A stretch of 64,000 bases of DNA from NCBI GenBank assembly GCA_000091205.1, contig AP006490.2, one strand, 5' to 3'. The number at the start of each line of letters is the position of its first letter. The stretch's first letter is position 1. Of the stretch, positions 1-60,514 are shown in pieces. The translations under genes and the position numbers were made by a program. The stretch is from Cyanidioschyzon merolae (Eukaryota). The notes beneath the pieces were generated by a model. The model did not search any database and was not told the DNA's origin. It worked only from the letters and a program-made list of their open reading frames with translations.

Positions 1-1184
1 ATGCCCCCAGAGGCTCCCTTCTCTCCTGTTTGCATGAACAAGGGTCTTGGAATCGGACTTGCAACATCGCAGCAGCGCCGTCTCAGTCGAAAGTGTATCG
101 TATATTCGCAGGCAAGGAAGCGTACACGGATCGAAATTGCTCGTCTTGTTTTCCAGCCGGGATTCCGCTTTCGTTGCCTAATTCACTTTTGACAGCGTTG
201 AGATCCACAATCCTCAATCGAATGGGAAAGCGCTCGCTTCCACGTGCAGCCGACTGAGAACTCGTCGAGCGGGTCGACCAGAGCAAGCCGGTGATCTTCG
301 GGTATGGCACCTCAGCCGGCATCGGACGACGGCATGGAAGCAAGGCTTCTGTGCCCGTCACCAGCATGTATCGATCGATGAATCATGCGTTTATGCGTCA
401 TAGGGCAACCACTGGAATCGGAGGCGGTGGCATCGATACATGGGAGTACCGAACCACAGTAACGTGTCACCACGACGAAGAGCACACTCAGGCCGTATAC
501 AACGTAGACGATGACAAAAATTGGATCATCGATCGCGAAAACCTTCTCTCTATCAAGTGCGTAGACAACAGCAGGAAGTCGCGAAATACCAACCTTTCAC
601 GCTGCTATCAAAACCCTTCGACTACTGACAACGGGGCTAGATGGACAGGAGTGACCGACGCACTGAAAGCCGGAGATAAGAGAGACAATAAGGAACGAGT
701 CGTAGAAAAAAGTCTGCGAAAGCTAGTCGTGATGACGATCGAAAGAGACCCAGATTTCAGAACGGTCGCTTGAGTTTGGTGACTGTGTAGACCCCCGTGC
801 CATGCGCTGCACGCAGGGGAAGGACGGCCCTGGACCGGCACCAGCGCGATCGGTGGAGCCAACCTGTGTCTGCAAAATCCCTAAAGGTTCAGTTTCAGTA
901 GCAACGGCGCGTCGCCAGCGGGCACCATGCCGTGCACGATGCCGTCGACCGCATCAGGCTTCTTCATAGAAACTGTAACTAACTGGAATAAAAGGACAGC
1001 TTGCGGCGGGCTCGTCGCCAGCCGCCGTCGCACTACGACGGTCTCTCCCTGACCCAGAAACGTCTCTGGACTTGCGCGTTACCGACTGGGTCGACGTCGA
1101 AACGAACTCGTTTCCGTTGCTAGTACTGACCTCCACATACGCGCATCGTAACGCATCGAACAACACACATACGTTCCGAAAAAA

Positions 1185-2537
1185 ATGGGTAAGGAAAAGA
1201 CGCACGTTTCCGTGGTGGTTATCGGTCACGTGGACTCGGGCAAGTCGACTACGACGGGTCACTTGATCTACAAGTGCGGCGGCATCGACAAGCGAACGAT
1301 CGAAAAGTTTGAGAAAGAGGCGAACGAAATGGGAAAAGGTTCGTTCAAGTACGCGTGGGTGCTGGATAAACTAAAGGCGGAACGGGAGCGAGGGATCACG
1401 ATCGATATCGCGCTGTGGAAGTTCGAGACGGACAAGTACTACTTCACGATCATCGACGCTCCTGGGCATCGTGACTTTATCAAGAACATGATCACGGGTA
1501 CGTCTCAGGCGGACCTTGCGATCTTGGTGGTTGCGTCTCCTCCTGGAGAGTTTGAGGCTGGTATCTCGTCGAACGGACAAACTCGTGAACACGCGCTGCT
1601 CGCGTACACGCTCGGTGTGAAGCAGATGATTGTGGCGGTGAACAAGATGGACGATAAGAACGTGAACTGGTCTCAGTCGCGTTATGATGAAATCACCAAA
1701 GAGTTGAACTTGTATTTGAAGAAGGTTGGCTACAACCCGGACAAGGTTCCCAAGGTACCAATCTCGGGCTGGACTGGCGACAACCTGTTCGAGCGAGTGC
1801 CATCGGACCATCCGCTTGCCAAGTGGTACAAGGGACCAGCCCTGCTGGAGGCGCTTGATGCCATCGAGCCTCCGAAGCGCCCCACCGAGAAGCCACTGCG
1901 TCTGCCCCTGCAGGATGTGTACAAGATCGGCGGTATTGGCACGGTGCCCGTCGGTCGGGTAGAGACGGGTATCCTGCGGCCAGGCATGGTGGTTACCTTC
2001 GCGCCCACTGGTCTGACGACTGAAGTCAAGTCAGTTGAAATGCATCACGAGTCACTCCCCGAGGCTGGGCCAGGTGACAACGTTGGCTTCAACGTCAAGA
2101 ACGTGAGTGTCAAGGAACTGAAGCGCGGCTTTGTATGCGGAGACAGCAAGAACGACCCACCCAAGGCCGCGGAGGACTTCAAGGCACAGGTCATCATTCT
2201 GAATCATCCGGGCGAGATCCGGGCCGGGTACGCGCCCGTTGTTGATTGCCATACTGCCCATATCGCCTGTCGGTTTGCGGAGCTCTTAGAGAAAATCGAT
2301 CGCCGCACCGGCAAGAAGATCGAAGAGAACCCTGAAAAGGTGAAAGCCGGCGATGCCTGCATGGTTCGAATGATTCCGTCCAAACCCATGTGTGTGGAAA
2401 CGTTTAGCGAGTATCCACCACTAGGGCGGTTTGCCGTTCGTGATATGCGCCAGACGGTGGCCGTAGGCGTCATCAAGGAGGTCAACAAGAAAGAGGCGGA
2501 AGGCAAAGTAACGAAAGCAGCAGCGAAGAAGGCATGA
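1185..2537 (+). CDS. EF1A: Translation elongation factor 1-alpha (intronless, 450 aa)
   Basis: ORF translation carries the canonical G1-G4 GTPase motifs ([18 protein letters not shown]) and full-length EF-1alpha collinearity to the C-terminal [10 protein letters not shown]; ATG start, TGA stop. Confidence 0.95.
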
Positions 2538-2942
2538 TCATGATACATAAAGGAATCTGAGAAGTGTATGCACAATGTGCCCATGTCCTCAGCACATGTA
2601 AGTAGTAGTAGTAGTAGTACGCCAGGAGAAATACGGAAATGTTCGCACCCTACTCCCGTTTCAGCTTACAACGGACCGAGTTCACGAACGGTGTCATACG
2701 CGCTAACGTCTGGGCATCCTGCTACGGGGCATCAACAGGGGCCTTTATTTGCTGTTTCTGCGTCGGCCCCGTGTCGTATTCCTCTCATCTCCTGCCTTTG
2801 AACGTGCTGGTCGCTCCGTTTTCTCCGGCTCTGTTGGGCACAGTCGAGGGCGGCTAATGGCAGCGTTCAGGTTCCGATATCGCCGCTTTCGGCTGTTGTC
2901 GACGCAGTTCACCTAGAGGCAGGCGTAGCGATCTACGCCTGG

Positions 2943-3503
2943 GTGCTCAGGTTCGCCATCTTTGTATACAGTCTAGGTGTGCTCTTCGCAACGGTAACAC
3001 TCGACACTAGTCAGATCATCCCATTTGTGTCCACTGCAACGCATCCGCCTCTATACGCCATCTGGTGGCGCTTGACGGCTTGCTTCGTCGCTCTGTACTT
3101 GCCCGTAAGGTATACAGAAGGCACCACTCGATATCCTGACGGTTTCCGCGCCCGATACGCTATGCCACGATCAAAGGTTTTCGCTGGGCGATGCATTCGG
3201 CGAGTCCGCAGTTGGCTGCACGCGCAAGAGCATGCTGTACCATTCGATGGCGGATTTGTGGAACTTGATTCTGTTGATGAGGAAGCAGGTACGGGAAGGA
3301 GTATCCGGGCTGGAGAACACGTCGAGACATTTCAATTCGTCTATGCTTCTTTTTTCGCCTCTGTGGCGCACGCTCTACTTGAAGCGATCGATGCAATGAC
3401 GCAAATCGAATTCCAGAACCCTTTTCCATGCAACCAGGAGAGTCGGGGGCCCTTCCGTCGACGTCCACAAAGAGAGATGCCTTTGTCTTTCCAACCGAAT
3501 TGA
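2943..3503 (+). CDS. Hypothetical protein (186 aa), no recognisable domain
   Basis: Isolated ORF in the 3-kb gap between EF1A and the E2 gene; only ORF length supports it. Confidence 0.15.
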   Translation: MLRFAIFVYSLGVLFATVTLDTSQIIPFVSTATHPPLYAIWWRLTACFVALYLPVRYTEGTTRYPDGFRARYAMPRSKVFAGRCIRRVRSWLHAQEHAVPFDGGFVELDSVDEEAGTGRSIRAGEHVETFQFVYASFFASVAHALLEAIDAMTQIEFQNPFPCNQESRGPFRRRPQREMPLSFQPN

Positions 3504-5439
3504 TTACTAGACATGACAAGTTCAGTGAGCACACATGACGAACTTGTGAACAGCTCGCCGAGGGACGGAGTCGAATCATTTTCGTCGTGAAAACCGGCGG
3601 CGCTGATGGCTGCCCCTATTCGTTGGCTTGAAAACTAGAGTCCGAAATCAAGATACATGCTTGATTCGAGCTTGCTGCACGTCACGAAAGGACAAGTACG
3701 GAGGATTGTACGTATGCATTGGATGGTGATATCTGGTATTTTGCGCACCCTTGATCAAGATCTTTGCGAATCATCTCGACTCCAATGACGTAACGGAGTC
3801 CAGCAGCAACTCGTCGAATGAATCACTCCGGGAAATCCACCAAGCATCTTAACAATGCCTATGAAACCGTAACCCCATGTTGCTGTCCAGCGACTATCGA
3901 GACTGTCCATCGAAACCAATCTCGGAATAAAACGTCGTGCGGGGACAGGGCGTGCGCTTCAGGTTTCCATTGTAAGCTGACACGTGTTCCGGCATTTGTA
4001 TCCGAAACCAGGCAGCAGGGCGTTGACGTGTACCAAGCACCTCAGTTGCAAACCCCGAACCTGTGCAGCTACTGCCCATGATGACCATGATCCCCGCACC
4101 CACTTAAATATTGCGTTCTGACTCTGGTATCTCGACGCCACTGGCGCGCTCGTCCAGGTCGAATGGCTATCAGGTCGCTACGGAACCACAAGTCGTTACC
4201 GCGCTTTGGTCATGCCTATATCAGGCCGCACGGAGATAACGCGGCATCTCCTCAGCCGACACCGCTCCAGCGCCCCCCGTCGCAGTGCATTTGTAAACGC
4301 TGGAGCACGGGTGTCTGCATACGCGTCGCGGTTACCCATTGATACCAACCGAGCGTGCACTACCGCGTAGAATATTCGGAATCGGAACGCCACATTTACA
4401 ACAAGTCCTTCACCACAAGCCGTACCGCAAGTATCTAGAATCTCTAATGAGCAAAAGGGTATCTGATTGGGCCCTAGGACGACTCAGGATGACGCTGGGT
4501 GTACGAACCTGCCTTGCAGAGAGCCGCACCTGCCTCCGTGGCATCGTTGTGCTGTGACTACTGCTCGTGCAGTGCGCGATCGCACCGAAGAGGCCCACAC
4601 GATAGCTGCAGCCTCCATATATCCACGTGCTTCTGTGCATATCTCCTTGCACAGTGCAGCGTCAATTTGCAGGTGTGCATAGCGAGCAATTAGCGGAGAG
4701 TGTCTGTGCAGTGCAGCACGCCAAACGACTTGCCAACGAGTGATCGAGCGCTTCACGATCGGGATAGAGTGTGTTGAGGTGTCGTGCGTTGCTCGCGATG
4801 GGTATCGTGCTTCATCGAGCTGCGCAACGCGCACTGGCATACACATCGCATGGTTTGGTATTGGGCAGCATGCGACACATCCCCTGCATACGTTTGGCGC
4901 TAGTTTCTTCTGCAATACACGTTCGCTGCATGGCGGATATGCTTCGCAAAGCGGTGGCGGCGTCCAAAGATCGTTTGCGGTGCCGTTCCACCGCCAGCTC
5001 CCTTGGCGAAACCTTCTGGCGCGTTTGACGATATCGCAGCCGAAACAGTATCCGCAGCAGTCACGGTGCTCGTATCGGTACTGTTGATGCCTCCAGATCA
5101 GCTGCAATGATGACACCAGGCCGATGCGCGACTGTGTTGACTGCGGCGGCACTGGAGCAGGTCAAGCGACAGCGGACGCGGGGAGCCTCACGGCGACGCG
5201 TGCTCGTCGTCATTGCCACACGCGAAGGTCCATGATTTCACTCGTTGCCGCTCAGCTTCACTGCAACAGACCTGCCCGCTACGCGCTGTCTCTCGGTCGA
5301 CTGAATGCTGGGACGAATTCCCGGGCCTCTGCGTTCACCGTACAGTCCATGTCGGGCTTTGCATGCCGCGCTGTCGCTGTGTACAGCGAGCTCGTGCATA
5401 TGAGCAGTGCGTTCGCACTGCGCGGATGTCGGGAAAGCA

Positions 5440-6171
5440 TCAGGAATTACCGTTGCCAACCAGGCGTCGTCCGCTGAAGCTGAACGCCTGAGCACCATCA
5501 TCCAGCGCATTGCGTTCCTCGTCGTCACTGTCACTCAGCGACTCGAGTTCACTTGCACTACCATTGGATGCCGCCCTGGTCGTATCGTGCGCCGAATCAG
5601 CGGCAGCGTTCGCAGTCGCACCCTTAGATGAAGAGGCCAGGGAGGATGTGCTCGGTTGGGCACTCCGGCTCTGCTGATGGCGACGCAGCGCCTGCGTTCT
5701 TGACGCCACTGGATAGTCCTCCTCGCGTGCATATCGATTCACGAATTCTCTCACTTTCTGTTGGAAACGCTGTGGCTCACGAAGATGCAGTGCCGCCGCT
5801 TCGCCGTTCAGAGGGTCCTGGCTGTTCGGATACGTGAGCAGCTGCGGTAGGAAAACCTCGAAAACGTTCAAAAGATCGAAGAGCGGCGACCAGGTCTGGT
5901 TAATCACATCCAAGCACACAGACCCACTCATCTGGTCGATGTTCGGATGATAGATAGCGTTCACGAAGCCGATACTTGGAGACTTGTATGGGTAGGCCTC
6001 GGGGAGCTCCACGTGTACCTTCCAGACACCGCCTTCGTAGGGCGTGTCCTTGGGACCCCGAAACTTCACGTAAAACTCCGCGTTGGAGTCCTCGTTCGCC
6101 ATTTCCACCTCGTAGTCCGCCATGACCAACTTCATTATGTCCATTTCGCGACGTCTTCCCGGAGACGACAT
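5440..6171 (-). CDS. UBE2H: Ubiquitin-conjugating enzyme E2, UBE2H-like, with Ser/acidic C-terminal tail
   Basis: UBC fold motifs: [38 protein letters not shown] plus active-site Cys in [13 protein letters not shown]. Start placed at the internal ATG ([11 protein letters not shown]), which matches the UBE2H N-terminus; the 28 upstream codons of the ORF are treated as 5' flank. Confidence 0.85.
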
Positions 6172-6251
6172 GCTCGTGACAACGCAGAAAGTACTGGGCT
6201 TTCGCAAGTCCGTGCGCACTGGCCAACCTTTTTTTAGTTCTCCAAGCAGTT

Positions 6252-8011
6252 TCACCTATGCACCCTGAAAATAAACGTCTTTCTAAGGAAAAACGCTGCC
6301 ACCGGCGGGCGCAATACAGTCTTGGCGAGAAACCCGCCCTGGACAAGACTTCTCCAACTGACGTGCAGACGCCTGCCAGCCTTTCTGGAACGGGCACCCA
6401 CTACTGCTTCCAATTCTTTCTCATATAGTTCCATTTTGAGAGGCTGTCCGACAAAATGCTCTCTTGTCTACGCTGAAGGTCTGTTCTCCATCACCGCACA
6501 TCGCCTTCAATGGATAGCGGTATTTACGTCCCGGTTCTCAAACTCCATACGTTTCTTGTTATTGATCGTACTTACTGATGCAAGTTGTCCACGAACTTTT
6601 GCCATCCTTTCCATTTGCTCTTCCGTTAGCTGTTCGTACTTTTTTATATCTTCAGGGCTCCGCTCGCACTTTTTCATCTCAACTCTCTGGCGTGTACAAC
6701 CCAGTTCGTGGTTTGTATACGATGCCCGGAACTCATCGATGGGTATCGTAACGAAACGCCTTGCGCACTCTCTGAATGTTCTTGTCGTTGGAGCTGGCCT
6801 AGTCCCTTTTTGGGTCTTCCAGCGCCCTGCTCGGTACACTACTAAAAGCCTCTGACTGTCCTCCTCCTTCAAGGCGCTCAACCCATTGAAAAAGTTTGCG
6901 AACGCCCGCTGCATCCCCCAGTACAATTTCATAATGAAAAGAGAACACCGGGGCTTTGTATATTCTTTCCACAGCGCCTCCCAATGGGCAACACGAACTT
7001 CCATGAATTTCCGAAAAGCTTCCTAGGCCGCTCCGCGGCTCGTCACCTCGCTCAAAGCTTCCAGGTGATCATTCATTCCTGCATTCTACGTCTCGATTTT
7101 CTTGCTTGCATTCATGATTCCCGATTCTCGATGGTATCTCGCTCTCGAGAATCTCAACAGACGCATGTCTTTCTGAGGCAAGTTACCGTCAATGCCATCT
7201 TCCGCACGCTTGGGTACTGCGATGGTTACGATATTCGTGTTCCCGGGGTCCGCGCCAACGACAAGGTCGTTATCCTGGGGATTATACATTTCAGGGCCCA
7301 CCTCCATCTTATCTTCATGCTTCGTCACGGGCGAAGCGCAAGGCGCGATGGGACGATCCACCTTCAACCTCCGATACTGTACACACATGGCTACTCCATC
7401 GGTTTCGATCATCCCAGCGAATACCTTTTATTTGCTCACTTTGGGACGTTTGAAATCGAAGATATTCTTCCAGTACGTCTCACGGTTTTCACCGGGGAAC
7501 TCTGTCTTCCTTACATCGAACTCCGGACAGATCTCCCTCATGATGCCTTGAAGGACTCTGGAGCCGATGGTCACACAGTGTGACTCGATGTTGTTCAACG
7601 GAACGACGTTAAATTGCTTCCCCATTAGGAAAGCCTTTCGTATCTCCGACGCTTCATTTTTCTCCTCACTCAGCTTCATCTATGCCTCGCGTTCCAGTCC
7701 TCGGTCCAGGAACACGAAATAGCGCAGGATGAGGCGATCGTATCTTTTCTTATCTTTTTTTTCATCTCTGATAACTTTTCTGTTCGGTTCGCCAGCCCCA
7801 GTACCGCACGATGCTCTTGTATAACCCAACGGATTACAGGAGCTTCATTCTTTCTCCTGCGTGATGTCTTCTTGTCGAAGAATTCGATCTCCTGTTCATT
7901 CTGGCAATCCTTCGTGATGCCATTGATAATCGCCCATATTCCTTTGCGAGCGATGCCCGGGTAGAGTGCATAGACGGAGCGTTTCATGAAGCGTTCGAGG
8001 TTCATCGTCAA
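6252..8011 (-). mobile_element. TnpB/Fanzor-like (IS200/IS605 OrfB-type RuvC nuclease) element, copy 1, near full length but degraded
   Basis: Collinear minus-strand ORF pieces 7676-8011, 7428-7679, 7086-7412, 6507-7004 and 6252-6434; the last four share one frame separated by in-frame stops, and the first is joined by a -1 shift at an ATGA overlap. Motifs: RuvC-I-like [16 protein letters not shown], TnpB zinc-finger lead-in VTIPIDEFRASYTNHELGC...KKC, and RuvC-III-like ENRDVNTAIH. A paralogous fragment lies at 10.7-11.3 kb. Confidence 0.7.
6252..8011 (-). pseudogene. Fanzor/TnpB-like nuclease ORF interrupted by at least 3 in-frame stops and 1 frameshift (about 570 codons total)
   Basis: A TAA sits between 7428-7679 and 7086-7412 with open frame on both sides. 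A TAG sits between 7086-7412 and 6507-7004. I could not construct a frame-preserving GT..AG intron across either gap. Confidence 0.55.
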
Positions 8012-8533
8012 ATGGTTCTTCAGGTCCGTATGGTACTTGATCGTCCCGTAGGTTTAAAGATCCGAATCACCCCTGTATCGTGTACCCTCAGGGCGGTACT
8101 CGGCGTGATTCTCGTGGAGGGCATGAACCCGCTCATTTCCCCTCCGCGTTTCCCCTGTGCCAAGCATCAGGCGACAAATCAAGGTCCTGTCGAAAACGCT
8201 TTCGAAATCTCGACTGGTTTGATGTCCGTCACTGCTGCTGTGCCAGGGAAACTTCGTGCGCCTGATCGCACGCTGGAATGTGTTGTCGACGGGGCGCACT
8301 TCGGTGCAATGGATGGAACGTTGCGGAGCGGAACGCTGACAACATCTCCGTTCGGGCGCACAGGAACGACGCGATGCTTGGCAATGACCGCTGTCTGTTT
8401 CGACTTATCGGTCTGCGTAAGCGGATGTAACCAAACGGCACCGAAAATGATACAGGAGCGAGCGCACGATCCGCTCGCGCCCTGCGGGGGTCCGTTGCTC
8501 CCCTGCGATGCCCTCTAGCGATGCCCGTTGTCT

Positions 8534-10609
8534 TTACGCTGCATTCCCCGATTCTCTTTTCGCGAAAAGCTCGTACTCAACCTCTAGACTATCGTTTGTG
8601 GGATAGTCGGCTACAACCCGCTCGTACAAGTAGAGCGCATTCTCGTTCGTGACACTCTCGTCGATGTAGGCGCGTGCCTCGCGCAGCAGACGTGCGCTAT
8701 CTCGAGACAGACCCCACAGATGCAGCCGAATACCATAGCTCCTATACTGACGGGCTAGGGAGTCTAGCGCCTCTAGCGCTGTCGCGTCCCAGATGCGGCT
8801 ACCAGAGAAGTCGATGATCACGTGCTCATGGCCTTCGGCACGATCCCGTGCTGGGTCGAACAGACGACTGAAGCGCTCCGCCGTGCCAAAGAACAGCGGA
8901 CCGTCAATCCGGTATCCCCGCCATCCGCGCGTTTGCTCGTCCTCCGAAATAAAGCTCTGGGCGGTAATGCGTCGCGACGCTTTATAGGCAAAGACCAGCG
9001 CCGAGAATACCACACCAAACAGGACCGCCAGGGCGACGTTGCGCGTTGCTACAGTCATCAGGGCAACGCTCACAATGGTCAGCGAATCAGCGAGAGGTAT
9101 GGCACGAAACAAGCGCAGCGATGCCCATTCGAATGAGCCCAGCGCCACCAGCACCATAAGGCTTGCAATGGCTGGGACGGGAATCCGAATCATCAGTCCG
9201 CTCGGATTTCTCGCCAACACGAGAAGACACAGCGCCGCAGTCAGTCCAGAGAGACGCCCGCGTCCCCCTGATTTCGTGTTCAGAAGCGACTGGCCCAGGA
9301 GGCCGCAGCCGCCCACGCCACCGAATAAGCCCGCGGCGATATTCCCTGCCCCAAGCGCTAGACACTCCCGACGCGTGCTACCCCGCGATTCCGTGACTTC
9401 GTCTACCAAAGTCATGGTTAAAAGAGATTCCAAAAGACCGATGAATGCGAGACCAAGCGCGGTGCTCAGAATGGCCATCCATGCCAGCGGTGTTGACGGC
9501 AGGGCTGCCCAGGATACGCCAATGGCCCCTGACTGTGCCAGCGTGTCGCGCAAAAAGTCGCCAAGCCGCCGCACAGGCGCTTGCGTCACCTCCGCATAAA
9601 TGGATGCCACGAGGATGCCCGCTAGTGGGCTTGGGAGCCAACGCAACAGCTCAGCGAGGCGGTGCTGCCACCGATGGGTACTATCGGGGCGCCGGCGCTC
9701 TAGTCGCTGAATGATCAAGGGCCATACATGGGCGACTCCAGCGGCGAGCGCTGCGACGATCAACGCTGCACGCAACATGTTACCCTGGAGCCAGGGTGCG
9801 CCCGGGCTCAGCCCGGTTCCCGCTGGAAGCTGAAACGCATAGACCTGACTTGTCGCCGTCAAGATGGCGATGCCGCTGATGAATCCCAGAAAGGTAGGGT
9901 ACGATATCAGCCGCACAAACTTTCCCAAACGATAGATCCCGAAGAAAAGCTGGAGTATACCGCTGAGCACCACGGCGGCAGCGACCGCTGCTGCGCCGTA
10001 CTGTTGATAGAGAGGCGCTTGCAGAATAATGAGCGCTGCAGATGTTCCCGAGATCATGCCAGGGCGTCCTCCCAGTGCGGCAGTTATCGCACACAGGAGA
10101 CCAGTCGAGACGATTCCAGCGAGCGGCGGCACGCCCGTGGCCAACGCGCAAGACGCCGCCGCAGGCAGCAGCGCCATCGCCACCGTAATGCCCGCCAGCA
10201 CTTCCTCTACCGTCGAGCGTAGCGGATAGCGCGCTGTGCGTTCGTCCAAAATCCGACGCTCTCCAACGAAATAGCGCCCGATATCCTCACGTGGTGCAAC
10301 GAGCGGGAAGAGCCCTCGCTCACCAGGCTTGGGACGGTGCCTCGCTTCGGCGTCGGGGGTACCCCCTGGCGCCGAACCTGTCCCCCGTACGCGAGCAAGT
10401 GCTCCGCAGCGCGTACGCCGCCTCGCGCGGAACCCAGGCACCACCAGCGAGTTGCACTGGCTCCGGTTCCGTACGACGAAACGTACGCCGCTACCGCTGA
10501 AGGTATTCGTTACTATGAAACCGCCTAAAGCATTCTCAACGCCCATGTTCCGACGAAAGTACCTTGCGTGTCCAGTGAACAGGCAGTGCACAACAAGGCG
10601 CTCGTGCAT
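8534..10609 (-). CDS. SulP-family sulfate/anion permease with C-terminal STAS domain
   Basis: Multi-helix membrane core (GIVSTGLLCAITAALGGRPGMISGTSAALIIL; FLGFISGIAILTATSQ) followed by a STAS-like tail (HVIIDFSGSRIWDATALEALDSLARQYRSYGIRLHLWGL). The ORF extends upstream to 10717 on a TTG-type call; start set at the internal ATG (MHERL...), and 10546 (MGVENALGG) is an alternative. Confidence 0.85.
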   Translation of the reverse strand: MHERLVVHCLFTGHARYFRRNMGVENALGGFIVTNTFSGSGVRFVVRNRSQCNSLVVPGFRARRRTRCGALARVRGTGSAPGGTPDAEARHRPKPGERGLFPLVAPREDIGRYFVGERRILDERTARYPLRSTVEEVLAGITVAMALLPAAASCALATGVPPLAGIVSTGLLCAITAALGGRPGMISGTSAALIILQAPLYQQYGAAAVAAAVVLSGILQLFFGIYRLGKFVRLISYPTFLGFISGIAILTATSQVYAFQLPAGTGLSPGAPWLQGNMLRAALIVAALAAGVAHVWPLIIQRLERRRPDSTHRWQHRLAELLRWLPSPLAGILVASIYAEVTQAPVRRLGDFLRDTLAQSGAIGVSWAALPSTPLAWMAILSTALGLAFIGLLESLLTMTLVDEVTESRGSTRRECLALGAGNIAAGLFGGVGGCGLLGQSLLNTKSGGRGRLSGLTAALCLLVLARNPSGLMIRIPVPAIASLMVLVALGSFEWASLRLFRAIPLADSLTIVSVALMTVATRNVALAVLFGVVFSALVFAYKASRRITAQSFISEDEQTRGWRGYRIDGPLFFGTAERFSRLFDPARDRAEGHEHVIIDFSGSRIWDATALEALDSLARQYRSYGIRLHLWGLSRDSARLLREARAYIDESVTNENALYLYERVVADYPTNDSLEVEYELFAKRESGNAA

Positions 10610-10674
10610 TGCCGATGCTTCCGACGCGAGCGCTGAGATCCGTACATGCAATCTCGGATGGCGGGCAGTTTGAT

Positions 10675-11330
10675 CTCCGCATGAATCTATAATGTGGGGA
10701 GTATCGGGCATTCGCAATTTTTTTTTCAGTGAGTTGAGTGCCTTGAAGGAGGATGAAAGTCAAAGGCTCGTAGTAGCGTACGAAGCAAGGCGCTGGACGA
10801 CCCAACAAGGGTGTACACCAGATCCCACGACGAGAACGTATACGGAGTGCGCAAGGCGTTTTGTTATAATACCGGTAGATGGATTTCGAGCATTGTATAC
10901 ACACCATGAACTGGGCTGTACACTTCAGAGGGTCGAGATGGAAAAGTGCCAGCGGGGACCTGAGGATATAAAAAAAGTACGGACCGCTGACAGAAGAGCA
11001 AATGGAAAGGATAGCGAAAGTTCGAGGATTGCTTGCGTTAGTAAGTACAATCAACGGCAAGAAACGTATGGAGTTTGTGAACCGAGACTTTAACGCCGCA
11101 ATCAATATAAGGAAATGTGCGGTGAGAGAGGAAAGACCTCTCGGGTCGACGAGAGAGAATTTTGGAGGAAAACCGCTCAAAGTTAAACTATATGAGAAAA
11201 AGTTTGAAGCAGTAGTAGGTGGCCGGTCCAAAAAGACGGGCAGGCTTCTGCACATCAGTCGGAGACATTTCTTCTAGGGCGGCCCGGTCGCCACTACTGT
11301 ACACCGCTGGCGTCGTTCGCCTCCTGAACA
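10675..11330 (+). mobile_element. TnpB/Fanzor-like element, copy 2: 3' fragment only, inverted relative to copy 1
   Basis: ORFs 10692-11093 and 11002-11277 align with the C-terminal ~190 aa of copy 1 (FFFSELSALKEDESQRLVVAYEARRW...ARRFVIIPVDGFRALYTHHELGC... / MEFVNRDFNAAINIRKCAV) at roughly 75% identity. DNA homology begins near 10675 and continues about 50 bp past the stop. The frameshift between the two ORFs is a +1 in an A7 run near 10968. Confidence 0.7.
10692..11277 (+). pseudogene. C-terminal fragment of Fanzor/TnpB-like nuclease (zinc-finger lead-in plus RuvC-III motif NRDFNAAINI), frameshifted
   Basis: Same evidence as the copy 2 element; the fragment lacks the RuvC-I region. Confidence 0.6.
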
Positions 11331-11375
11331 GCGTTCGGTGTCGGCGATGGCGATGGCGATGGCTTTCCAGGCTCC

Positions 11376-12950
11376 CTAAAACAATTTGTTGAACACCTGC
11401 AAACCTAATTCGATAGCGATGAGCGCTACAATTGCTCTTTCAACGCGATGGGTGGTAGAGGTCGCCAGTTCACTATTCAGCAGCGCTAAAGAATCCTGTA
11501 CAATATCCATGCGCTTATCCAAAAGTCGTGCTCGCTTCTGTAGATCAACAACCTGAACACTCTGATTATAAACAGTTTCACTGCTGGGGTACTCCCAGAA
11601 AATCTCCGGGGTATCCAGGATATCTGAGAGCAGTGCGACCGAGTATTTGGCGGTGAGAAGCTGACCGATGCGTCGACGAAGATCGTCTTGGGCCACTGTG
11701 CGGAAGCGCCCGTATTTCGCGAGCTCTTCCGGCAGGCGTCGCGTCTCTTCCACCAGTCGATCAATGCTCAGCTCAAATACGAGCAATTTAACGCTCTGTG
11801 CGAGCCCAAAAGAGATCGCGAGCATACTCAAAGCGTCCGCATAATCATGCAGAAAAATACGGTCGTTGCGGAACTGAGTCAGCGAGTTGGGTATGCGCTC
11901 TTGATTTCGAGACAGCGGCGCCTGCAGCGCTGGACGAAGCTTCGCACGACCAAGGGCAGACGGCATCGGCAGTGCATGCTCAGCGGTCGCCAATCGATTC
12001 GGGGAGGCTGGCGCTGCGCTCGCCGCAAGTGCGGCACCCCCAGAGGGCGAAGTTCCATCCGGTGCATCGCTTAGAGTGTCGGTGCTGGACTGTGCGCTGT
12101 CCATGAGGTATGAAAATTCAAACTCATGGTCGAACTCCTCGAAGGTGACATTGGAATTGTAGCCGGGTTGTATGTCGCATCGACGTGCCAAGCGCAGCAA
12201 CTCCCGCCGCGTCTCCTCGTCCACATCCCAGAACACTGCTGCGCCTGACTCGAAGAAAAACACATGACCATCGGCATGTGGCATTCGGACCTGCTCCTGA
12301 CGAGTCGCAGGCCGCACCCGACAATGCAGTACGTCCCGGGAAAGGGTACTCGCATCCACGGTGGTGACCAGTGGGACCGAGCGAAGCAGGTCGCGCAGTT
12401 CTTCCAAGCGATACCCCGAAGCGAGGCAGTAAGCAGCACATATGCGTACTGCCTCGCCAGACGACCCGGAACGGGCCTTTGTTTTCCGCTGTTTATGAAC
12501 CCGCAGTGTGCTAGGCGAGCTTGGCGGTGGAGGCGGCGGCGGCGGTGGTGCAGCGGGCGTCGAGATGCCACCAACATCGACAACACTCGCCGTCGCCAGC
12601 GCTGCAACCTGTAAAGCAGTGCCGTGCGACTGCATCGCTGCAGTGCACGGCGTGTCGGCAGGCACATGGACACGCAACCACCACTGCGTGTGTTTTCTAA
12701 GGTAACTGGACAGCGTCCGCTTCTGAAGCGAATCCGTCCATGTTCGCCGGAATCCATTGGACGGGTAACCTAGATCTGAAGAGAAGCGAGCTTGCAGCTG
12801 CAAGATCCAGTTAATTCCCCCCTGTCGTCTGCACGCTTCACCAGAGCTGGTGGTCGAACACGTTCCAGCCCAGCGCCCGAGCCGCTGGTGCCGCAGTATC
12901 GCGCAGCAGCGCCCCGCAGTTCGTACAGCGCCTATTAATGCAGAGTTCAT
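11376..12950 (-). CDS. RMND1: RMND1/Sif2-family protein (DUF155, mitochondrial translation/meiosis-associated)
   Basis: DUF155 signature HVFFFESGAAVFWDVDEETRRELLRLA, and the family-typical C-terminal amphipathic/TM segment (RVERAIVALIAIELGLQVFNKLF). Confidence 0.7.
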   Translation of the reverse strand: MNSALIGAVRTAGRCCAILRHQRLGRWAGTCSTTSSGEACRRQGGINWILQLQARFSSDLGYPSNGFRRTWTDSLQKRTLSSYLRKHTQWWLRVHVPADTPCTAAMQSHGTALQVAALATASVVDVGGISTPAAPPPPPPPPPSSPSTLRVHKQRKTKARSGSSGEAVRICAAYCLASGYRLEELRDLLRSVPLVTTVDASTLSRDVLHCRVRPATRQEQVRMPHADGHVFFFESGAAVFWDVDEETRRELLRLARRCDIQPGYNSNVTFEEFDHEFEFSYLMDSAQSSTDTLSDAPDGTSPSGGAALAASAAPASPNRLATAEHALPMPSALGRAKLRPALQAPLSRNQERIPNSLTQFRNDRIFLHDYADALSMLAISFGLAQSVKLLVFELSIDRLVEETRRLPEELAKYGRFRTVAQDDLRRRIGQLLTAKYSVALLSDILDTPEIFWEYPSSETVYNQSVQVVDLQKRARLLDKRMDIVQDSLALLNSELATSTTHRVERAIVALIAIELGLQVFNKLF

Positions 12951-14473: not shown

Positions 14474-16948
14474 CTAATCCACGAGCGCATAGATATCACC
14501 GCGCTGCGTGCCGTAAACGATACCCTGCACAAGCTGGGGGTAATTCGCAGAATACATCGGCAGAAACAGGGCGCAGTTAATCCCATCCACTTCCTCGAAA
14601 GATCTCCAGTCAAGAGCAGTCGAGGCATCTCCGGGTGCAATGCCAGCATGTGGCCTCGCTGCCGGGATCGATCGGAGGCAGTGCATGGACCCCGTGCGCA
14701 GGTCCGCTTCAAACAAGTCCAAAATAGGTCTCATTTCAGCTGCTTCCAGCGTTTCCGAGTGTGTCATACTCTCCCGATAACTGTAACCCGCTAGAAAATA
14801 GATTCGATCCCTGTCGGGCGATACCTTCCCGAACCCAGTATTCGGGGATGGTACAAACCGTAGATTCGTCAACGCCCTCGTATGACATGCATCCAGGGGC
14901 ATACGAGCCCGTTCTCGAAGCTCAACTGAAGAAACCGCACCATCGATACTGGTTAAAAAACACGAATCAAGGACAGGAGATTTTCGCGCTTGTCCCGATA
15001 CCGCAGAAACAGGTAGGATCTCATAGATAACGATGTGCGCGACAAAGGTTGAGGCACCACCACTGGGAACACGTTCCTGGGCAGCACGTACCCAAACGTT
15101 CCGCGACTCCAAGCCTGCTGGGGCATGTGCGGTATCAGGTACTGGGGAGCGCACTGCGCTTCGAGGTACGCCGGCTCCATGCGAGCGAGGCGCGCTGCGC
15201 TCGGTGCCACTGTGGAGGCTGCTCGCGTGGCTATCGCTCGGACAGTGGGGCGGTGGTCGGCGTAGCTGTGACTGCAGGATGCAGACGAGCAGATACCGAC
15301 CATCCGTGGATACGCTGATACCCGCCTCGTTGTATGCGACGACCTGAGGTATTTTGCCGATCAAGACTCCAGGGCACAATGTATTGCACACGGGCGTGCT
15401 GCGGCTTCTCTGGAAGCCGTAGCCGCTGCCACCAACGTCACCATTACTACTACTGTTGGGAGCGCTGTCGATATATCTCAGCGGCTCTTCTCTCAGCTGG
15501 TACAGCTGAATATCAAGGGTGAATGGAGCGGCCGCCACACGGAAAAGTTCCGCTTCCTGTTCCGTGGAGAGCACCGGTGAACGCGTCCCAACAAGCAGGA
15601 TGGAGGCCCCTGCGAGTGCATTCACCAAATGAATTGGTACGCCTAGGTAATAGCAGGCAGAGCGCTGCTGCGAGTCCTCTACCAGGGTTTCGTCGGTGGA
15701 TTCAGCGGGATGCCGCTCAGGCCGCCCCGCAGTTACTCGCTGCATGTCCATAGGGTGCTGCGCGCTGAGGTCAGCTTCATCTGCGTTTTCGTTCGAACGT
15801 GCATTCTGAATCTGCCGGCTAGCGTGGCGTGCTCGCCGAGTTCCCACGATCCCTGCCACTGAACTGGACCCAACGGCTTGCCGTTGTCGCTCTCGGTCCG
15901 GAGGCCAGGGAAAGCGTGAAGCGCTCCCCAGGGAAGTCTGGAAGCTTGCAGCGTCACCAGCGAGCGCCCCTGAACGACCAGCGCCGATCGTATCGAAAGA
16001 TGCAGCGGTGTCGAGCGTGCTCGCTGTGGCAACGCTCGAGGCGCGCGTATCTCCCCGAGTCACTCGATCCTCCAGAGCAGTGCGCGTATGGATATGAGCT
16101 TCACGACCCGCACTGTAAGTCGACGCTCCCACGAGCACTCTGTTCGTATTGGTCGTTTGCCCAGCAGCTGCAGACCGACGCCCTCGATCTCCGTACAAAG
16201 CATGACGCGGAGAGGGCTCTCGTGTGGCCGCAGTACCCGCTCCAATCATCGGTCTTGTCATCGTTCGAAGAAGTGTTCGCGACCAGAGCGTCCGCCGCCA
16301 TTGCCAGAAAAAGAGCGACCGTCGCGCAGCAATGATGACGACTTCCCCAGACGGATCAAAAACCACACAACTGATGCTGGATGGTCCATATTCCGGGAAG
16401 AAGGCAAAGTTCTCCGGGTGCTGTTCACTTACAGTGTATCGCGCTACACATTGATCACGATACCAGACGTAACAGTGACCTCCGAGGCAACCGCTCACCA
16501 TGAGGTCGGAGTCACGCGGGTGAAAATGCACACTCCACGGAGTACGCGGATGACCGTACAATTCAGCGCTTAATTCGAGTGAGAACGAGCAGCCAGTATC
16601 CTGGCACAGTTCACGTACTTGCGAGGATTCCGGGCGCGCATTCTCCGTTTCTCCTCGACGTATTCGATAGGTCCGCACTACATGGTCACCATGCGTCGAT
16701 GCGAGCCTGGTTCCATCGGCAGAAAGACTCAGCGCGATGGTGCTACGAACGTGCTCAGCTCCGTGGCGGTTCGTCGCGATTCGAATGCGGCGCTGTAATC
16801 GCTTTTGCAAGAGAAAGCGCTCCCAGTTCAGCGCGTGTTCCCGGGTATCAGGAGCAGCTTTTGATGGAGGTGTGAGGTGCAGCTCATTGCAGACCCTCTT
16901 TGCGGGTCGGAATTCCACTTCTCGGTGTTCTGTCCAGGTCGTCAACAT
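14474..16948 (-). CDS. WD40-repeat protein (824 aa) with long low-complexity middle region; family uncertain (AMBRA1/DCAF-like?)
   Basis: WD-like units (LSLSADGTRLASTHGDHVVRTYRI; HFHPRDSDLMVSGCLGGHCYVWY; VVFDPSGEVVIIAARRSLFFWQW) at the N-terminus and a beta-propeller-like C-terminus; long single ORF. Confidence 0.5.
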   Translation of the reverse strand: MLTTWTEHREVEFRPAKRVCNELHLTPPSKAAPDTREHALNWERFLLQKRLQRRIRIATNRHGAEHVRSTIALSLSADGTRLASTHGDHVVRTYRIRRGETENARPESSQVRELCQDTGCSFSLELSAELYGHPRTPWSVHFHPRDSDLMVSGCLGGHCYVWYRDQCVARYTVSEQHPENFAFFPEYGPSSISCVVFDPSGEVVIIAARRSLFFWQWRRTLWSRTLLRTMTRPMIGAGTAATREPSPRHALYGDRGRRSAAAGQTTNTNRVLVGASTYSAGREAHIHTRTALEDRVTRGDTRASSVATASTLDTAASFDTIGAGRSGALAGDAASFQTSLGSASRFPWPPDRERQRQAVGSSSVAGIVGTRRARHASRQIQNARSNENADEADLSAQHPMDMQRVTAGRPERHPAESTDETLVEDSQQRSACYYLGVPIHLVNALAGASILLVGTRSPVLSTEQEAELFRVAAAPFTLDIQLYQLREEPLRYIDSAPNSSSNGDVGGSGYGFQRSRSTPVCNTLCPGVLIGKIPQVVAYNEAGISVSTDGRYLLVCILQSQLRRPPPHCPSDSHASSLHSGTERSAPRSHGAGVPRSAVRSPVPDTAHAPAGLESRNVWVRAAQERVPSGGASTFVAHIVIYEILPVSAVSGQARKSPVLDSCFLTSIDGAVSSVELRERARMPLDACHTRALTNLRFVPSPNTGFGKVSPDRDRIYFLAGYSYRESMTHSETLEAAEMRPILDLFEADLRTGSMHCLRSIPAARPHAGIAPGDASTALDWRSFEEVDGINCALFLPMYSANYPQLVQGIVYGTQRGDIYALVD

Positions 16949-33238: not shown

Positions 33239-34219
33239 AAAGCAAGTCTGTATGGTGGCAATGTTGGTGGCCCAGTGCCTTGTTGAACATGAAGCTCTAG
33301 TGCGGCTGTATGGTTGTTTCCCTAGATGACGAGAGCAATCCTGCGTTTGGGAATTGCTAGGTAGATTCAGTGATCCTGCAGCATGGAAATGCGCATATGC
33401 CTCCGTACCTACGTAGTCGACGACGAATGGATCAGTGGCGTGCATCGTCGACGGTCTTTGTGCTGCTCTTCCGCTCGGTCGTCATGATCTGCAGTAATGC
33501 GCGCATTTCTTTGCAGTATCAAGAAGGTTGATGCTCCTGTAGTGGGCAGTGTTGGCGCATCCGTGCGCGTCCGGTTCGACTCGACGATGAAGAACCAATA
33601 TGAAACCGGCGACAGTGCGTCCAGTGGATCAAATAGCGGCAGAGGCAATGCAGGGATCCGAGCGCCTTCGGAATCTCCATGCGAGGACGCGCGCTTTCAT
33701 ACTGCCACAAATCGATGCATCCAGAGGACTTTGAACGATCCTGCAGATTCATAGGCTTCCATGAACAAAAATCTAGACAAGAGATCCGTCCGCAAAACAC
33801 AGTGATGTTTGAGGGTTAAGGAGGCACCCGTACAGTCCGACCTCGCCTGCACACTTTGCACCGCTGCGACAGGGTCGGCTCACGATAGAACCAGAACAAT
33901 AACCAGTAGATCCGAGCGAAAGTATCGGTAATGGACCTTGAAAGCAGATTGAAGTATAATAGACGCTTTCCCTAATGCGAATATTTATCGAAAGAACCGG
34001 AATCCCTGGACAATGGAAACTTTGCGTCAACCTGGCTAGTGGACACGTGTCCCCGTGGGCGAGCGCCTGTGCGTCAAGACGAATTCCTGAATGCACTGGG
34101 ACACGCCGCCACGCAGTCCGCGTCAGCAGCGCTGCTGTTTGTCGGGGTTGCTCACACGTCTTTGCGTGCTACCTTGCGCAGTGAAGATAGCAATTCGCTA
34201 CCCGTAGCGGTGCTGGGGT

Positions 34220-48328: not shown

Positions 48329-50568
48329 AGTGCCCAGCCGGGGTCCACGCTGCGACCCAGGTCCAGCTGCGTCGCTCCCGTCCAAGGGCGTTGTGCGTCG
48401 AAACGGCGGCGTTTCTAGGGACAGGCCCGCTGGCGCTTTCCCGTACGCTCGCTAGAGGCTTGCTTCTGGGGTGTGTTCCGCCCGCAGCTGGGTATCATGA
48501 AATGCTTTTTCGCCGTTTATAGCAGATGTGTTCAAAGTTCGTTCATTTGGAGAAAAAATATGAGAGAAAGGTATGATGATGATTGTGGGGGGATTCTTAT
48601 GGACCGTCATCGCCATGTACCTGGAAAAAAATCGGAAAAATCCTCTTCTCGCCGAGCATCGAGCGAAGAAGAGCAAGTGACGAGGTCGCAGACCGGACAC
48701 AGGCGAGAAAAGGTGTTTTTCCCGACTGGACAACGTCGAGAGTGTCGTGATACAGCGGGCATGAGTTCGAGAGATCCTCGCTAAGATGCGCTCAACCAGA
48801 GGCAGAGCACGCCTACGTTTTTTATGGCGAGCAGGCTTACATCCCACAAGCTTCAAGTTTTCCATCTTTTTCTTTCAAGGCAAAGCGCCGCGGTGTAGCA
48901 ATTGGTGCGGCTGGATCGACGCGGAAACGTTTGCCGCATTGACCCTAGACGACATGCATTCAAGCTTTGGGACCAAGTTCACTGAACCTGTCGTGCCAGC
49001 GTATCGATTATGTTCGAAAGCCAAGCAGTCCCGGCTTTCTGGGTATCGGTGAAAAGATATTCCATACCGGCATGCTTCCGCTCGTATGCTATGCTTCCAG
49101 AGGCTCCCGCTTCCTCTGCCCTCTCAGGAATGGACCTCAGGCTCGGACTGCGGTCATCAGAGCGAGCGCTTCCAGTGGAAAGCGTTTCATCGCTTTGCAC
49201 GAAGGGCGCATAGACGGATCGATACTGCCAGAGTCCGTCTTGAAGCTGGAGTCTAATTCCAGTCCACTTTTCGTCATGGATAAGATCGCATTCCAGAAAT
49301 TCTCCAATGAATGGAACAGCACGCGCTTGCGTGTGTTGTGGAGGGAGCACTCGCCAAGGAGATCGTCAAAAAAGAAGCCCGCGTTTGCAGGGCATCCGGC
49401 ACACGACACGAAGCAGGGCATCGGGCGGAGCCCTGTGTGTACTCGTCAAAAGAACGTACCGAGCGGTGAAGAAATCGTTCGCGCGCCCCCGGGCGCTGCG
49501 CCGAAGAGAGCGTACGCTGGACGGACGGCAACATCTTACCACGATCAAGAGGCAATGCTCGAAAGGGCGCACGAAACCCTTATTCAATGAAGATGAAGAT
49601 GGCAAGCGAAGCATAGATCGCACCCACCGGCTCTGCGTCAGATACGTGGGCAGCAACTAGAAGCCGCGGAATCGATAGGTAAACGCTGCCATCGACACGC
49701 TTGGACTGCGAAAAACGGAGCCGAAGCGTGAGCCCGGCGTCAGTAAATCCCGGAGATAAGAGATAGAGAGGAATAGCGAGCTGTCGCCTTGAAAGTACGC
49801 AGAGGCTAGTTCCAACGACAACGGAACCCGACCCGAACTTTATCGCACACGCACGAGGAGTCTATGTGAATGCGGTCCGTTTCATTCCAACAAGAGCGTC
49901 CTTGTCGCTGCGTTGCAACAGGCAAAGCGCATTGATACCGTCGACGCAGTGCGGTGCAATTTCTCTCAGGTATCACGAGCTAAATCCTTAAACAAAGCGC
50001 ATATCTCGTCGTCCGGGTTCTGAATCTCAAGTACCCATATCCGAAGATTGAAGATCAAAGCATGATTCGAGCTTGGTCAGCTTAAAGCGGCTGCGAGACA
50101 CCAGCATGCTACGCGGTCGGAAGCGCGCTACCAAAGCTCCCAGCACGCTCTGCGCACTACTGAAACACCCTCCGTGCCTTGCTCGCATTTCTGGCGGAGC
50201 AGGCGCCTGTCCAAACCAAGTTTCTCGGTGTGTCACATGCTGCTGCTGCTGCTGCTCACAGCGTTGTAGACGTGCTCGAACACAGGACGCAGCAGACGAA
50301 CCTCGCATGCCGTGGGCACAAGACGACATGCATAGTATGCTTGACGTACATGTTGTATATAATAGTACAGATATATATTACTTATTATATTAAATGAATT
50401 TAATGCACATAAAGGACACCACGCAGGCAGCAGCTGCCCCTGCGGCTATCGCGGCTACCGAACGCACCACTTCAGACCGTGCTTGGGGCTTGTACTCAGG
50501 AAATTGCCCTGAGTACCCGCCAACGATCCGTCGCTTGTCCGGGGCCAGGACCAGACTGAACGGTGCTC

Positions 50569-58494: not shown

Positions 58495-60514
58495 AGAGCA
58501 GCTCTCGACGGAACTGGAATTTCGTGCAACCCTGCTTGGAACCAAGGGGCAAGACGTAGAAGCGTGCCAACGACGCTGCTGCACTGTCAGGCACGAGGTC
58601 GCGCCAGCTCCCCAGGCACCGCAAGCGTGACGCTGTGTGCCCGAACCTTGCGATCAGCACCCTCGTAAGCTATTCAGCGGCTGCAGTACCTGAAGTTCCT
58701 CTTTCTGGAGCGTTCCGTAAACACTCACTGATGATCAACCGCTTCGTTGGAGTAAGTTCCGCAGCAAAACGCGCCAAAACGGTGTGAACGTTTTGCGCGC
58801 CGCTTTTGGCGCGTTCTACGACACCTGCTGAAAAGTGCGCTGTGCTGTGCTGTGCAGCGCTGCATACGCATAGAGAAACTCAAAGAGCAGTGAGGTTTTG
58901 AATACCTCGATCAGCGTGCTTTTTGTTCTTATTGGTTCGTATGTCAGGTATTGAACGAATGGGGAGCACCCAGTCGATAGGGAAAATGTCAAGGAAAGCA
59001 CTTGTGCTGTCACAGTTAACGAACGAGACGTGTCTTTGTTCGACCTGTCAGTTATTCAACGATCTGCGGGGAGAGGAACCATCCTTCTCGTTGTCCTTGT
59101 TCTAGAAATCGTACACCCAAAATGGAACCCTTCAAACTCTATTCCTATGAGTTCGCTCTTGCCAATTAATTCCATTCTATACGTTCTTTAAGACCTAGTA
59201 CAAAACTAGTCACAGGATGCCGAGGTTCCGTACTGCTGCTTCGAAAGGTGATGGGTAGACGTGAACGCTCGAAGCAACCGGTATAATTGTATTGGAGACC
59301 GTGCCATATTGAATGACAAACTATTGGCTTCGTCCTGAAATACGAACGCTTCGAATATGGAAGAAAGATGCTCATCTACCTCGATGAGACTTCATTCGGG
59401 GCAAATGGTACACCCTAAGACGGGTACTCAGAGAGCGACAAAGCGCTGTCTGTCAAGGACGTATAAGCGAGCGCTCGGATAATATCAGCTCCTGAGGCGA
59501 TACTGTTATGGCATCGCGTGCCGGTCACGGAACGGGCAGGCTGGTTCTGCCCCAACTCCATTTTCGAAGCACTCTTCGTGGCTTCTCCTACCCAGCTTCT
59601 TCACCCTCGATCATTCACGAATCCGCTTCTCATCACTCAAAAGCGGTCACGGAGTTTGCAGTTGCGACTCTCGTTGAGCTGCTATTCGTCCGAGCAAGTC
59701 CTTTCTAGTACAATGCAGTCCAAGGTGTCTTCTCTGTCGTCAAAAGACATTTTTGAGCTCACAGTCCAATGGACGAGTCGTTCGTGCCCCTGGCACCATT
59801 CTGTACCGAAACCGGCCCTGGACTGCTCGGGTGCTCCTCTGTTCGTGCGCATGCTCGAGTAGAAAGACGCGCTGCGGTCTGTAGGTATGCTCGTGACGGA
59901 GGAGTCACGAAAATGTACCCAGGGATTCGGGAATAGACACAGAGATGGGGTGAGCTTCAGTCGTACCGTCCACAAAGAGCGTCTGAATCGCGAAGCGAAA
60001 AGGCTGTCGTGTCTGGCCACGATAGTCATATCGTCCCGCTTTTTCGAAGAGAATGCGATGAAACCAACGGGCTTCGAAGAGAAAGTTCCTTCCCAAGACA
60101 GGACCAGGAGATACCGGAAGAAAAGCATTTGTTCCAGAAATATACGTCAGAAAACGTTCTTCAAAGCCCTGCTGCTAAAACACATCGACGGAGAGAATCT
60201 TCCCATAGATGAGATGCAGGCTGCCACTTAAGGATCGCATAGGATCCTACTTTTGAAAGGCAAACCTTGCTTCGCTCGCCTAGCCGCACCTCGTTCTCCA
60301 ACTGTTCGTAGGAACTCTGGACACGGGGCTGCCAACTAACCACATCTCTCCGGGATTTCTCGATCAAACTCTCGAATGAAAACACACCTGATGCTCGGTA
60401 CAGAGGGCTACCATATGGCCTGATCGAAGGATGAACGATGCCCAGCAACGCCTCCCAGAATACCTTGACACTTCGCTGCTGCACACCTGCGGCCAGAATG
60501 GCCATAGCGCAGAT

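Follow-up and report, generated by a model that had tools for sequence, protein, structure and literature searches.

A sulfate permease gene of Cyanidioschyzon merolae lies inverted and duplicated between dead relics of the Fanzor1 transposon CMe-1A

On one chromosome of Cyanidioschyzon merolae strain 10D, the gene for a sulfate permease (SulP) is enclosed by two dead, inverted copies of the transposon CMe-1A. The stretch analyzed here, hereafter the window, comprises 64,000 nucleotides of contig AP006490.2 (assembly GCA_000091205.1), and six of its long open reading frames (ORFs) gave exact matches to 10D proteins encoded on the chromosome of 739,753 bp. CMe-1A was described as a Fanzor1 family of C. 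merolae with ~150 copies per genome, each ~80% identical to a consensus of ~3 kb (Bao & Jurka 2013, Mob DNA 4:12, PMC3627910). The element family has been known since 2013; what is new is the history of the locus, in which a transposon-bounded SulP cassette was inverted, copied to a second chromosome and homogenized. The features of the cassette in the window are the following.

6276..11333, 5.06 kb: the cassette, copy 2-SulP-copy 1, both ends being outward-facing CMe-1A 3′ termini; also present on the 810-kb chromosome
6276..8232, minus strand: copy 1, a 5′-truncated dead CMe-1A (consensus 1215-3169; BLASTN 85.3% over 1961 bp)
6315..6932, minus strand: inverted-repeat arm in copy 1, pairing with 10681-11301
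7444..7653, minus strand: private patch in copy 1, 210 bp, with 27 differences from three metagenome versions (diagnostic sites)
8534..10546, minus strand: SulP sulfate permease gene, 670 codons plus stop; Pfam Sulfate_transp and STAS
10674..11333, plus strand: copy 2, a 5′-truncated dead 3′ fragment of CMe-1A (consensus 2507-3169; BLASTN 84.3% over 642 bp)
10681..11301, plus strand: inverted-repeat arm in copy 2, pairing with the arm in copy 1
10970..10976, plus strand: A7 run with the +1 frameshift of copy 2, located by alignment; the same ORF break occurs in metagenome contig L003

The initial annotation, made from the nucleotide sequence without database searches, had proposed that two diverged, inverted Fanzor-like copies bracket the SulP gene, and this was borne out. 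BLASTN returned the inverted repeat as one high-scoring segment pair of 621 bp (6315-6932 against 11301-10681) with 78.1% identity, two gaps and an E-value of ~1e-143. The SulP ORF lies between the arms, the similarity between the copies is not low-complexity sequence, and BLASTN found no other DNA-level copy of 6101-8200 within the window. The 3169-bp CMe-1A consensus and the 734-residue CMe-1 protein (PMC3627910 supplementary file 2) served as the reference. Alignment to this reference identified both arms as CMe-1A, with a single Fanzor1 ORF that is recognizable but broken. Copy 1, supported also by TBLASTN with relatives, contains Fanzor1 codons ~104-734 and a 59-bp 3′ tail, whereas copy 2 contains codons ~535-734, the C-terminal third of the Fanzor1 protein. 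The minus strand from 8232 to 6276 consists mostly of one reading frame with in-frame stops, and a possible extension of the homology to ~8347, suggested by a weak protein match (E = 0.003), is unconvincing.

The alignment of both copies continues to the final base of the consensus (...GAAAGGCG), the end being reached for copy 2 in the three-way alignment, and the flanks beyond are unrelated. The 3′ termini of both copies are therefore kept and point outwards, that of copy 1 at 6276 facing the gene for a ubiquitin-conjugating enzyme (UBC) and that of copy 2 at 11333 facing the RMND1 gene. Several of the dimensions first proposed had to be revised. Copy 1, which had been placed on the minus strand from 8011 to 6252, keeps its strand and runs from 8232 to 6276, making it ~220 bp longer, and copy 2 remains close to its first placement at 10674 to 11333. 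The gap between the copies is 2441 bp instead of ~2.7 kb, and their amino-acid identity is 67% (133 of 198 codons in the consensus frame) instead of ~75%.

The reading frames of both copies are wrecked, each by its own lesions. Copy 1 carries two frameshifts, a 1-bp deletion near 8197 and a 2-bp insertion near 7762, together with seven in-frame stops (8056, 7682, 7430, 7088, 7025, 6509 and 6470). Copy 2 carries a 2-bp insertion at 10718, a stop at 10690 and the +1 frameshift in the A7 run. The initial annotation had allowed that this last lesion might be a sequencing error; it is real, because the frameshift is also present in independent metagenome contigs, with the same 133-residue ORF in L003. 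A single in-frame 3-bp deletion is common to the two copies, and all disabling lesions are private. With the gene start missing and with stops and frameshifts in both copies, the reading frames show that no protein can be made from either relic.

Measured against the rest of the family, the two copies show no special closeness to each other. Across 657 alignable columns, 72 differences from the consensus are private to copy 1 and 70 to copy 2, with 23 shared. Pairwise identities over the 3′ 660 bp are 0.77 between copy 1 and copy 2 and 0.79-0.81 between either of them and unrelated copies, which is a star-like pattern; the truncation points also differ (consensus 1215 in copy 1 vs 2507 in copy 2). 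Because the lesions are independent and the divergence is star-like, these alignments show the copies to be separate members of the ~150-copy family and not products of a local duplication, and the old duplication that had been proposed for them is not supported.

Comparison with related lineages revealed the original state of the locus in the window, which we call locus A. In Cyanidiococcus yangmingshanensis (L016), a metagenome lineage (L015) and Cyanidium caldarium (L020), the gene order is EF-1alpha (+), UBC (-), SulP (+), DUF155 (-) and WD40 (-), DUF155 being the RMND1 gene. The window has the same gene order but with SulP on the minus strand. No DNA or protein similarity to CMe-1A was detected within 10 kb of SulP in L015 or L016. 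Because the outgroups show the same order, the opposite SulP orientation and no element, locus A is the ancestral home of SulP, with the gene inverted in the C. merolae lineage. On this comparative evidence the cassette is a derived single-gene inversion within an ancestral, element-free EF-1alpha-UBC-SulP-DUF155 locus.

An alternative origin of the inverted arrangement is a local inverted duplication of one Fanzor element beside SulP, for example by a replicative intramolecular transposition that inverted the intervening segment, after which the halves diverged. Such an event would produce both the inverted copies and the inverted gene in one step, and a short common history would fit the 23 shared differences and the single shared 3-bp deletion. 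However, copies at different loci have a similar share of differences in common, copies 1 and 2 are 77-78% identical to each other while copy 2 is ~80% identical to unrelated copies, the truncation points disagree, and no disabling lesion is held in common. We consider a local duplication very unlikely.

The cassette is not confined to locus A. Metagenome contigs scanned with SulP contained two loci with identical SulP segments, and in contig L003 the arrangement copy 2′-SulP-copy 1′, with the same truncation points, lies between genes for thiamine-triphosphatase-like and RCC1-like proteins. By exact look-up, the proteins flanking the L003 cassette are 10D proteins BAM79956 (thiamine triphosphatase, ThTPase) and BAM79958 (RCC1). 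On the 810,151-bp chromosome of 10D these are consecutive with BAM79957, a SulP protein of 670 residues annotated as a probable sulfate permease, which stands between them. The two SulP proteins of 10D differ at 5 of 670 residues, and L003 has the two locus-B-type residues. Accession order and flanking proteins together show that 10D holds the cassette twice, as RMND1-cassette-UBC at locus A and as ThTPase-cassette-RCC1 at locus B. The ThTPase and RCC1 genes are directly adjacent, 0.8-1.1 kb apart and without SulP, in Cyanidiococcus (L017) and in a second lineage (L018/L019), and CMe-1A was not found in L017 or L018. Because the site is empty in two outgroup lineages, locus B is a derived site at which the cassette was inserted. 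Outside both termini, loci A and B have unrelated flanks.

With ~150 copies in 16.5 Mb, ~3-6 close pairs of CMe-1A copies are expected by chance genome-wide, and a third Fanzor relic and two small CMe-1A fragments occur in the same 64-kb window. The bracketing of SulP could accordingly be a coincidence of unrelated insertions into the only tolerated, intergenic sites of a compact genome, with the inversion and the second SulP unrelated to the element. Two observations speak against this: the duplicated segment ends at element 3′ termini on both sides and at both loci, and the elements, the inversion and the second copy are absent together in the outgroups. Coincidence is the least probable of the explanations weighed here. 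The flank outside the copy-2 terminus at locus A (11334-11346, TTCGGTGTCGGCG) resembles the flank outside the copy-1′ terminus in L003 (7475-7487, TGCGGTGTGCGCA); 9 of the first 12 bases match, which may reflect a target preference or chance.

The two cassettes are not equally similar along their length. Locus A, as represented by the window, was compared with L003 as the proxy for locus B. From ~11322, 14 bp inside the copy-2 terminus, down to ~7650 the identity is ~99% over an inner ~3.7 kb; between 7650 and 7000 it is patchy (88-97%), and from 7000 to the copy-1 terminus at 6276 it falls to 78-85%. In consensus coordinates, nearly all differences in 1215-1800 are common to loci A and B and those in 1800-2400 are mixed. 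In 2400-3169, 75 differences are private to A, 51 are private to B and 33 are shared, and the two are as unlike as unrelated copies. Because the cassettes are ~99% identical inside and ~80% identical in their outer transposon parts, ectopic gene conversion is the process we propose for the homogenized interior. From its diagnostic sites, the patch at 7444-7653 is probably a gene-conversion tract received from another CMe-1A copy.

Two simpler descriptions of the profile were rejected. Alignments that break exactly at the element termini are not the right picture, since identity taken segment by segment shows the outer part to be homology between different copies of the family. A single reciprocal crossover between the arms was also discarded: between the outer part of copy 1 at locus A and copy 2′ at locus B the identity is just 77%, and the transition falls beyond the segment common to both arms.

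Most contigs that contain EF-1alpha and UBC (L006-L014) end inside copy 1, as is usual for assemblies at a two-copy repeat. Contig L002 (1-19534) reads RMND1-cassette-RCC1 and contig L005 (14850-21353) reads UBC-cassette-ThTPase. The two configurations are the reciprocal products of a crossover between loci A and B, and could be either real translocations in wild strains or assembly chimeras.

We favor, as a moderately probable account, a history in which a composite unit moved by way of its outward 3′ ends, the inverted homology allowed the flip, and gene conversion followed; the route of mobilization is the conjectural part. The relics, and not the nuclease, would have done the work. A composite unit delimited by their outward 3′ ends would have been copied to locus B while the family was still active, either in trans through the transposition machinery of the family or via breaks made at the element ends. 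The flip of SulP would have been enabled by the inverted homology of the relics, and the cassettes at A and B would later have been homogenized by ectopic gene conversion. Today the arrangement is passive: the gene duplicates sit in dead repeats that are still able to recombine, and because both ORFs are wrecked the nuclease has no present role. The initial annotation had expected the inverted copies to be a substrate for inversion or ectopic recombination of the SulP locus, and both are now visible, in the orientation of SulP relative to Cyanidiococcus, Cyanidium and the metagenome lineage, in a second locus whose outgroup sites are empty, and in the conversion signatures.

Several observations weigh against this history. 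No target-site duplication was found at the cassette borders at either locus. CMe-1A has no known transposase or inverted termini, so that mobilization via two 3′ ends would lack a demonstrated mechanism. The divergence along the cassette is uneven, so composite transposition needs gene conversion as a second process. The outer parts of copy 1 at A and B are no more alike than random family members, which makes independent insertions equally possible there, and a simple crossover between the arms fails to explain the pattern. Locus B in 10D is known from the accession order and from the L003 proxy; the proteins on either side of the cassette in L003 are the same as in 10D, but the L003 SulP departs from BAM79957 at 3 residues. 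The composite-transposon-like capture raised in the initial annotation is a plausible reading: the unit does recur at a second locus with empty outgroup sites, but it comes without a target-site duplication, without a known transposase and with uneven divergence.

The same outer regions could be accounted for by recombination only. In that case CMe-1A fragments already resident at locus B suffered a break, and gap repair or ectopic conversion from locus A copied SulP between them, with no transposition of a cassette. Between A and B, copy 1 in its outer 0.8-1.3 kb and copy 2 in its last 14 bp are as unlike as unrelated members of the family, the transition zone has the mosaic structure that repair between diverged repeats would leave, and short conversion patches between diverged copies do occur. 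Such a history would nevertheless require two independent 3′ fragments lying tail-outwards in one 0.8-1.1 kb spacer, when few close pairs are expected genome-wide. Moreover, both truncation points fall within the 99% zone, and the resident truncated copies at B must then have been wholly overwritten. We regard recombination only as possible but rather unlikely; the star-like distances do not discriminate mobilization from gap repair. The cassette could thus have traveled by composite mobilization or by recombination between resident copies.

A bolder form of the mobilization account is that two outward CMe-1A 3′ ends are all that is needed in cis for DNA to move, and that a transposase-less Fanzor element spreads from its 3′ end. 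Under this reading the pair of ends would have taken a host gene to another chromosome and also inverted it at its original locus, and a Fanzor/omega-RNA-guided break followed by homology-directed copying is one possibility for how this might occur. We hold this to be unlikely. If true, the cassette would be the first composite, gene-carrying Fanzor element and would offer a handle on the spread of transposase-less Fanzor1 elements.

Composite transposons of the Tn10/Tn5 type consist of two insertion sequence copies flanking a cargo. The SulP cassette resembles them in that inverted copies of one element flank the cargo and the unit occurs at a second locus with different flanks; it differs in having no target-site duplication, no intact or known transposase, ends that are the two 3′ ends of an asymmetric element, and uneven divergence. 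Host segments bounded by transposon termini are also duplicated or inverted by reversed-ends transposition of maize Ac/Ds and by ectopic recombination in yeast (Ty) and Drosophila. Those cases share the element-bounded host segment, whereas they have defined DDE transposases and target-site duplications. The history of the SulP locus is a new example of this known kind of transposon-associated rearrangement.

Fanzor1 proteins are eukaryotic TnpB-like nucleases with a RuvC domain. The term Fanzor-like, used at first for the two copies, can be made specific, as the copies match CMe-1A and the family matches Fanzor1 by profile and fold. Motifs of RuvC type are present in copy 1 (DPGNTNI, IDEFRAS and NRDVNTA), and the D-E-D triad is intact in the consensus whereas the window ORFs are interrupted. 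Pfam scans of the fragments, of the stitched copy-1 protein and of close and distant relatives were negative or below threshold; the precomputed Pfam label of the family, PF26935, reads merely "DUF8286". Searched against the PDB, a narrow profile built from 9 sequences matched no Fanzor. An exhaustive hidden Markov model search yielded 2119 representative relatives at E ≤ 1e-3, and a 60-member profile searched against the PDB matched three distinct sequences only, all of them Fanzor1. The E-values were 6e-21 for Parasitella, 2.4e-13 for Spizellomyces and 5.4e-9 for Guillardia, and the alignments cross the three RuvC motifs.

An AlphaFold model of relative P0071, which is 44% identical to CMe-1, was built from the 60-sequence alignment and reached a predicted local distance difference test (pLDDT) score of 86.8; an earlier model from 16 close sequences was uninformative (pLDDT 39). 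When the P0071 model was compared with the PDB by Foldseek, the top seven matches were Fanzor1 (E 5e-18 to 9e-16, TM-scores 0.53-0.71), with Cas12f and other Cas12 proteins well behind. The profile match and the predicted fold assign the family to Fanzor1.

Fanzor1 proteins are omega-RNA-guided DNA endonucleases (PMC11423790). To the solved structures SpuFz (8GKH/9CEU), PpFz (9CF0) and GtFz (9CER; PMC11423790) the family is alike in profile and predicted fold, and the RuvC motifs DPGxxN, DEFRTS and NRDxNAAxNI are readable in the consensus and in copy 1. It differs in that the first CxxC of the zinc finger located between RuvC-II and RuvC-III is missing from the CMe-1 clade, and the window copies are untranslatable. 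The C4 zinc finger at this position is part of the motif of Bao & Jurka; CMe-1 has HHELGC-x10-C, with two Cys. As judged from the alignment consensus (CMe-1 residues ~600-680), the loss is clade-wide and includes CMe-1 itself, which the authors of the family filed as Fanzor1. The degenerate zinc finger, as read from these residues, weakens the claim of canonical activity and not that of homology. A search for an omega RNA with Rfam gave no match in 5000-12500, and folding of the 3′ end across copies gave no consistent or significant hairpin. A subterminal hairpin in the 3′ end of the consensus (GCCGCCA...TGGCGGC) was rejected, being neither conserved nor significant across copies.

The published description of CMe-1A reports no terminal inverted repeats, a target-site duplication that was not determined, no known transposase, and a 5′ 635 bp that also exists as the separate element TE-N2_CMe (PMC3627910). 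The window copies agree with it in their 84-85% identity to the consensus, the same ORF and the same 3′ terminus. No target-site duplication is seen at the cassette borders, and the 5′ ends, on which terminal repeats would show, are missing in both copies. They are 5′-truncated pseudogenes, and that paper makes no mention of a host gene enclosed by copies, of an inverted gene or of a cassette found on two chromosomes. When the stitched copy-1 translation was searched against the protein collection, it found 80 relatives at 51-77% identity, nearly all from Joint Genome Institute (JGI) metagenomes, plus two intact proteins of ~699 residues at 35-36% identity.

Further members of the family were observed elsewhere. 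A 161-kb metagenome contig (L001) contains a nearly full-length CMe-1A at 8342-11647 (consensus 6-3152), the ORF of which has an ~80-bp tandem duplication in its acidic linker; a similar linker expansion is present in metagenome proteins including P0001 and P0005. In the window, a small fragment at 33875-34029 (minus strand) corresponds to consensus 4-157 at 74%, in the part that also exists as TE-N2_CMe, and another at 48500-48575 (plus strand) corresponds to consensus 834-908 at 79%. A third and much older Fanzor1 relic of a different subfamily lies at 60236-62504 (plus strand), with the intact metagenome protein P0071 as its nearest relative. Amino-acid identity is 25-40% over separate pieces, stops are numerous, and the relic coincides with a G+C dip at 60-61 kb.

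The neighboring genes in the window are the following.

1185-2537: EF-1alpha, BAM79877, exact match to the 10D protein
5440-6255: ubiquitin-conjugating enzyme (UBC) gene, the neighbor on the copy-1 side
11376-12950, minus strand: DUF155/RMND1 protein, BAM79880, exact match to the 10D protein
14474-16948: BAM79881, exact match to the 10D protein

An exact cluster look-up identified the SulP between the repeats as BAM79879, a probable sulfate permease. It is annotated at 725 residues, and the annotated start, 55 codons upstream at 10711, falls within copy 2 on the opposite strand, whereas its paralogue BAM79957 and all metagenome versions of SulP have 670 residues. Because the locus-B proxy has an in-frame TAA within the corresponding stretch (10547-10711, minus strand), the extra 55 N-terminal residues of BAM79879 are probably an over-extension of the annotation into transposon sequence. 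BAM79879 and BAM79957 are so nearly identical that knock-out, expression and mapping work on either gene will be confounded by the other.

A distance of 132 bp separates the copy-1 terminus from the UBC start codon downstream of it (6144-6276), and on the other side the copy-2 terminus follows the RMND1 stop by 43 bp (11333-11376). The intergenic space is taken up almost wholly by the cassette, and the UBC and SulP promoters therefore must be located in or beside transposon sequence. A (GATGGC)x3.5 microsatellite is located ~10 bp outside the copy-2 terminus (11343-11365). The exact look-up of the window RMND1 protein matched no contig.

Because the genome of C. merolae is among the most reduced and repeat-poor of free-living eukaryotes, every gene duplication in it is conspicuous. 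That of SulP can be reconstructed almost base by base, from the ancestral gene order through the inversion and the insertion into an empty site to the ongoing homogenization. Dead Fanzor1 elements shape gene order and copy number in C. merolae, and the SulP cassette provides a concrete test case for the movement of CMe-1A.

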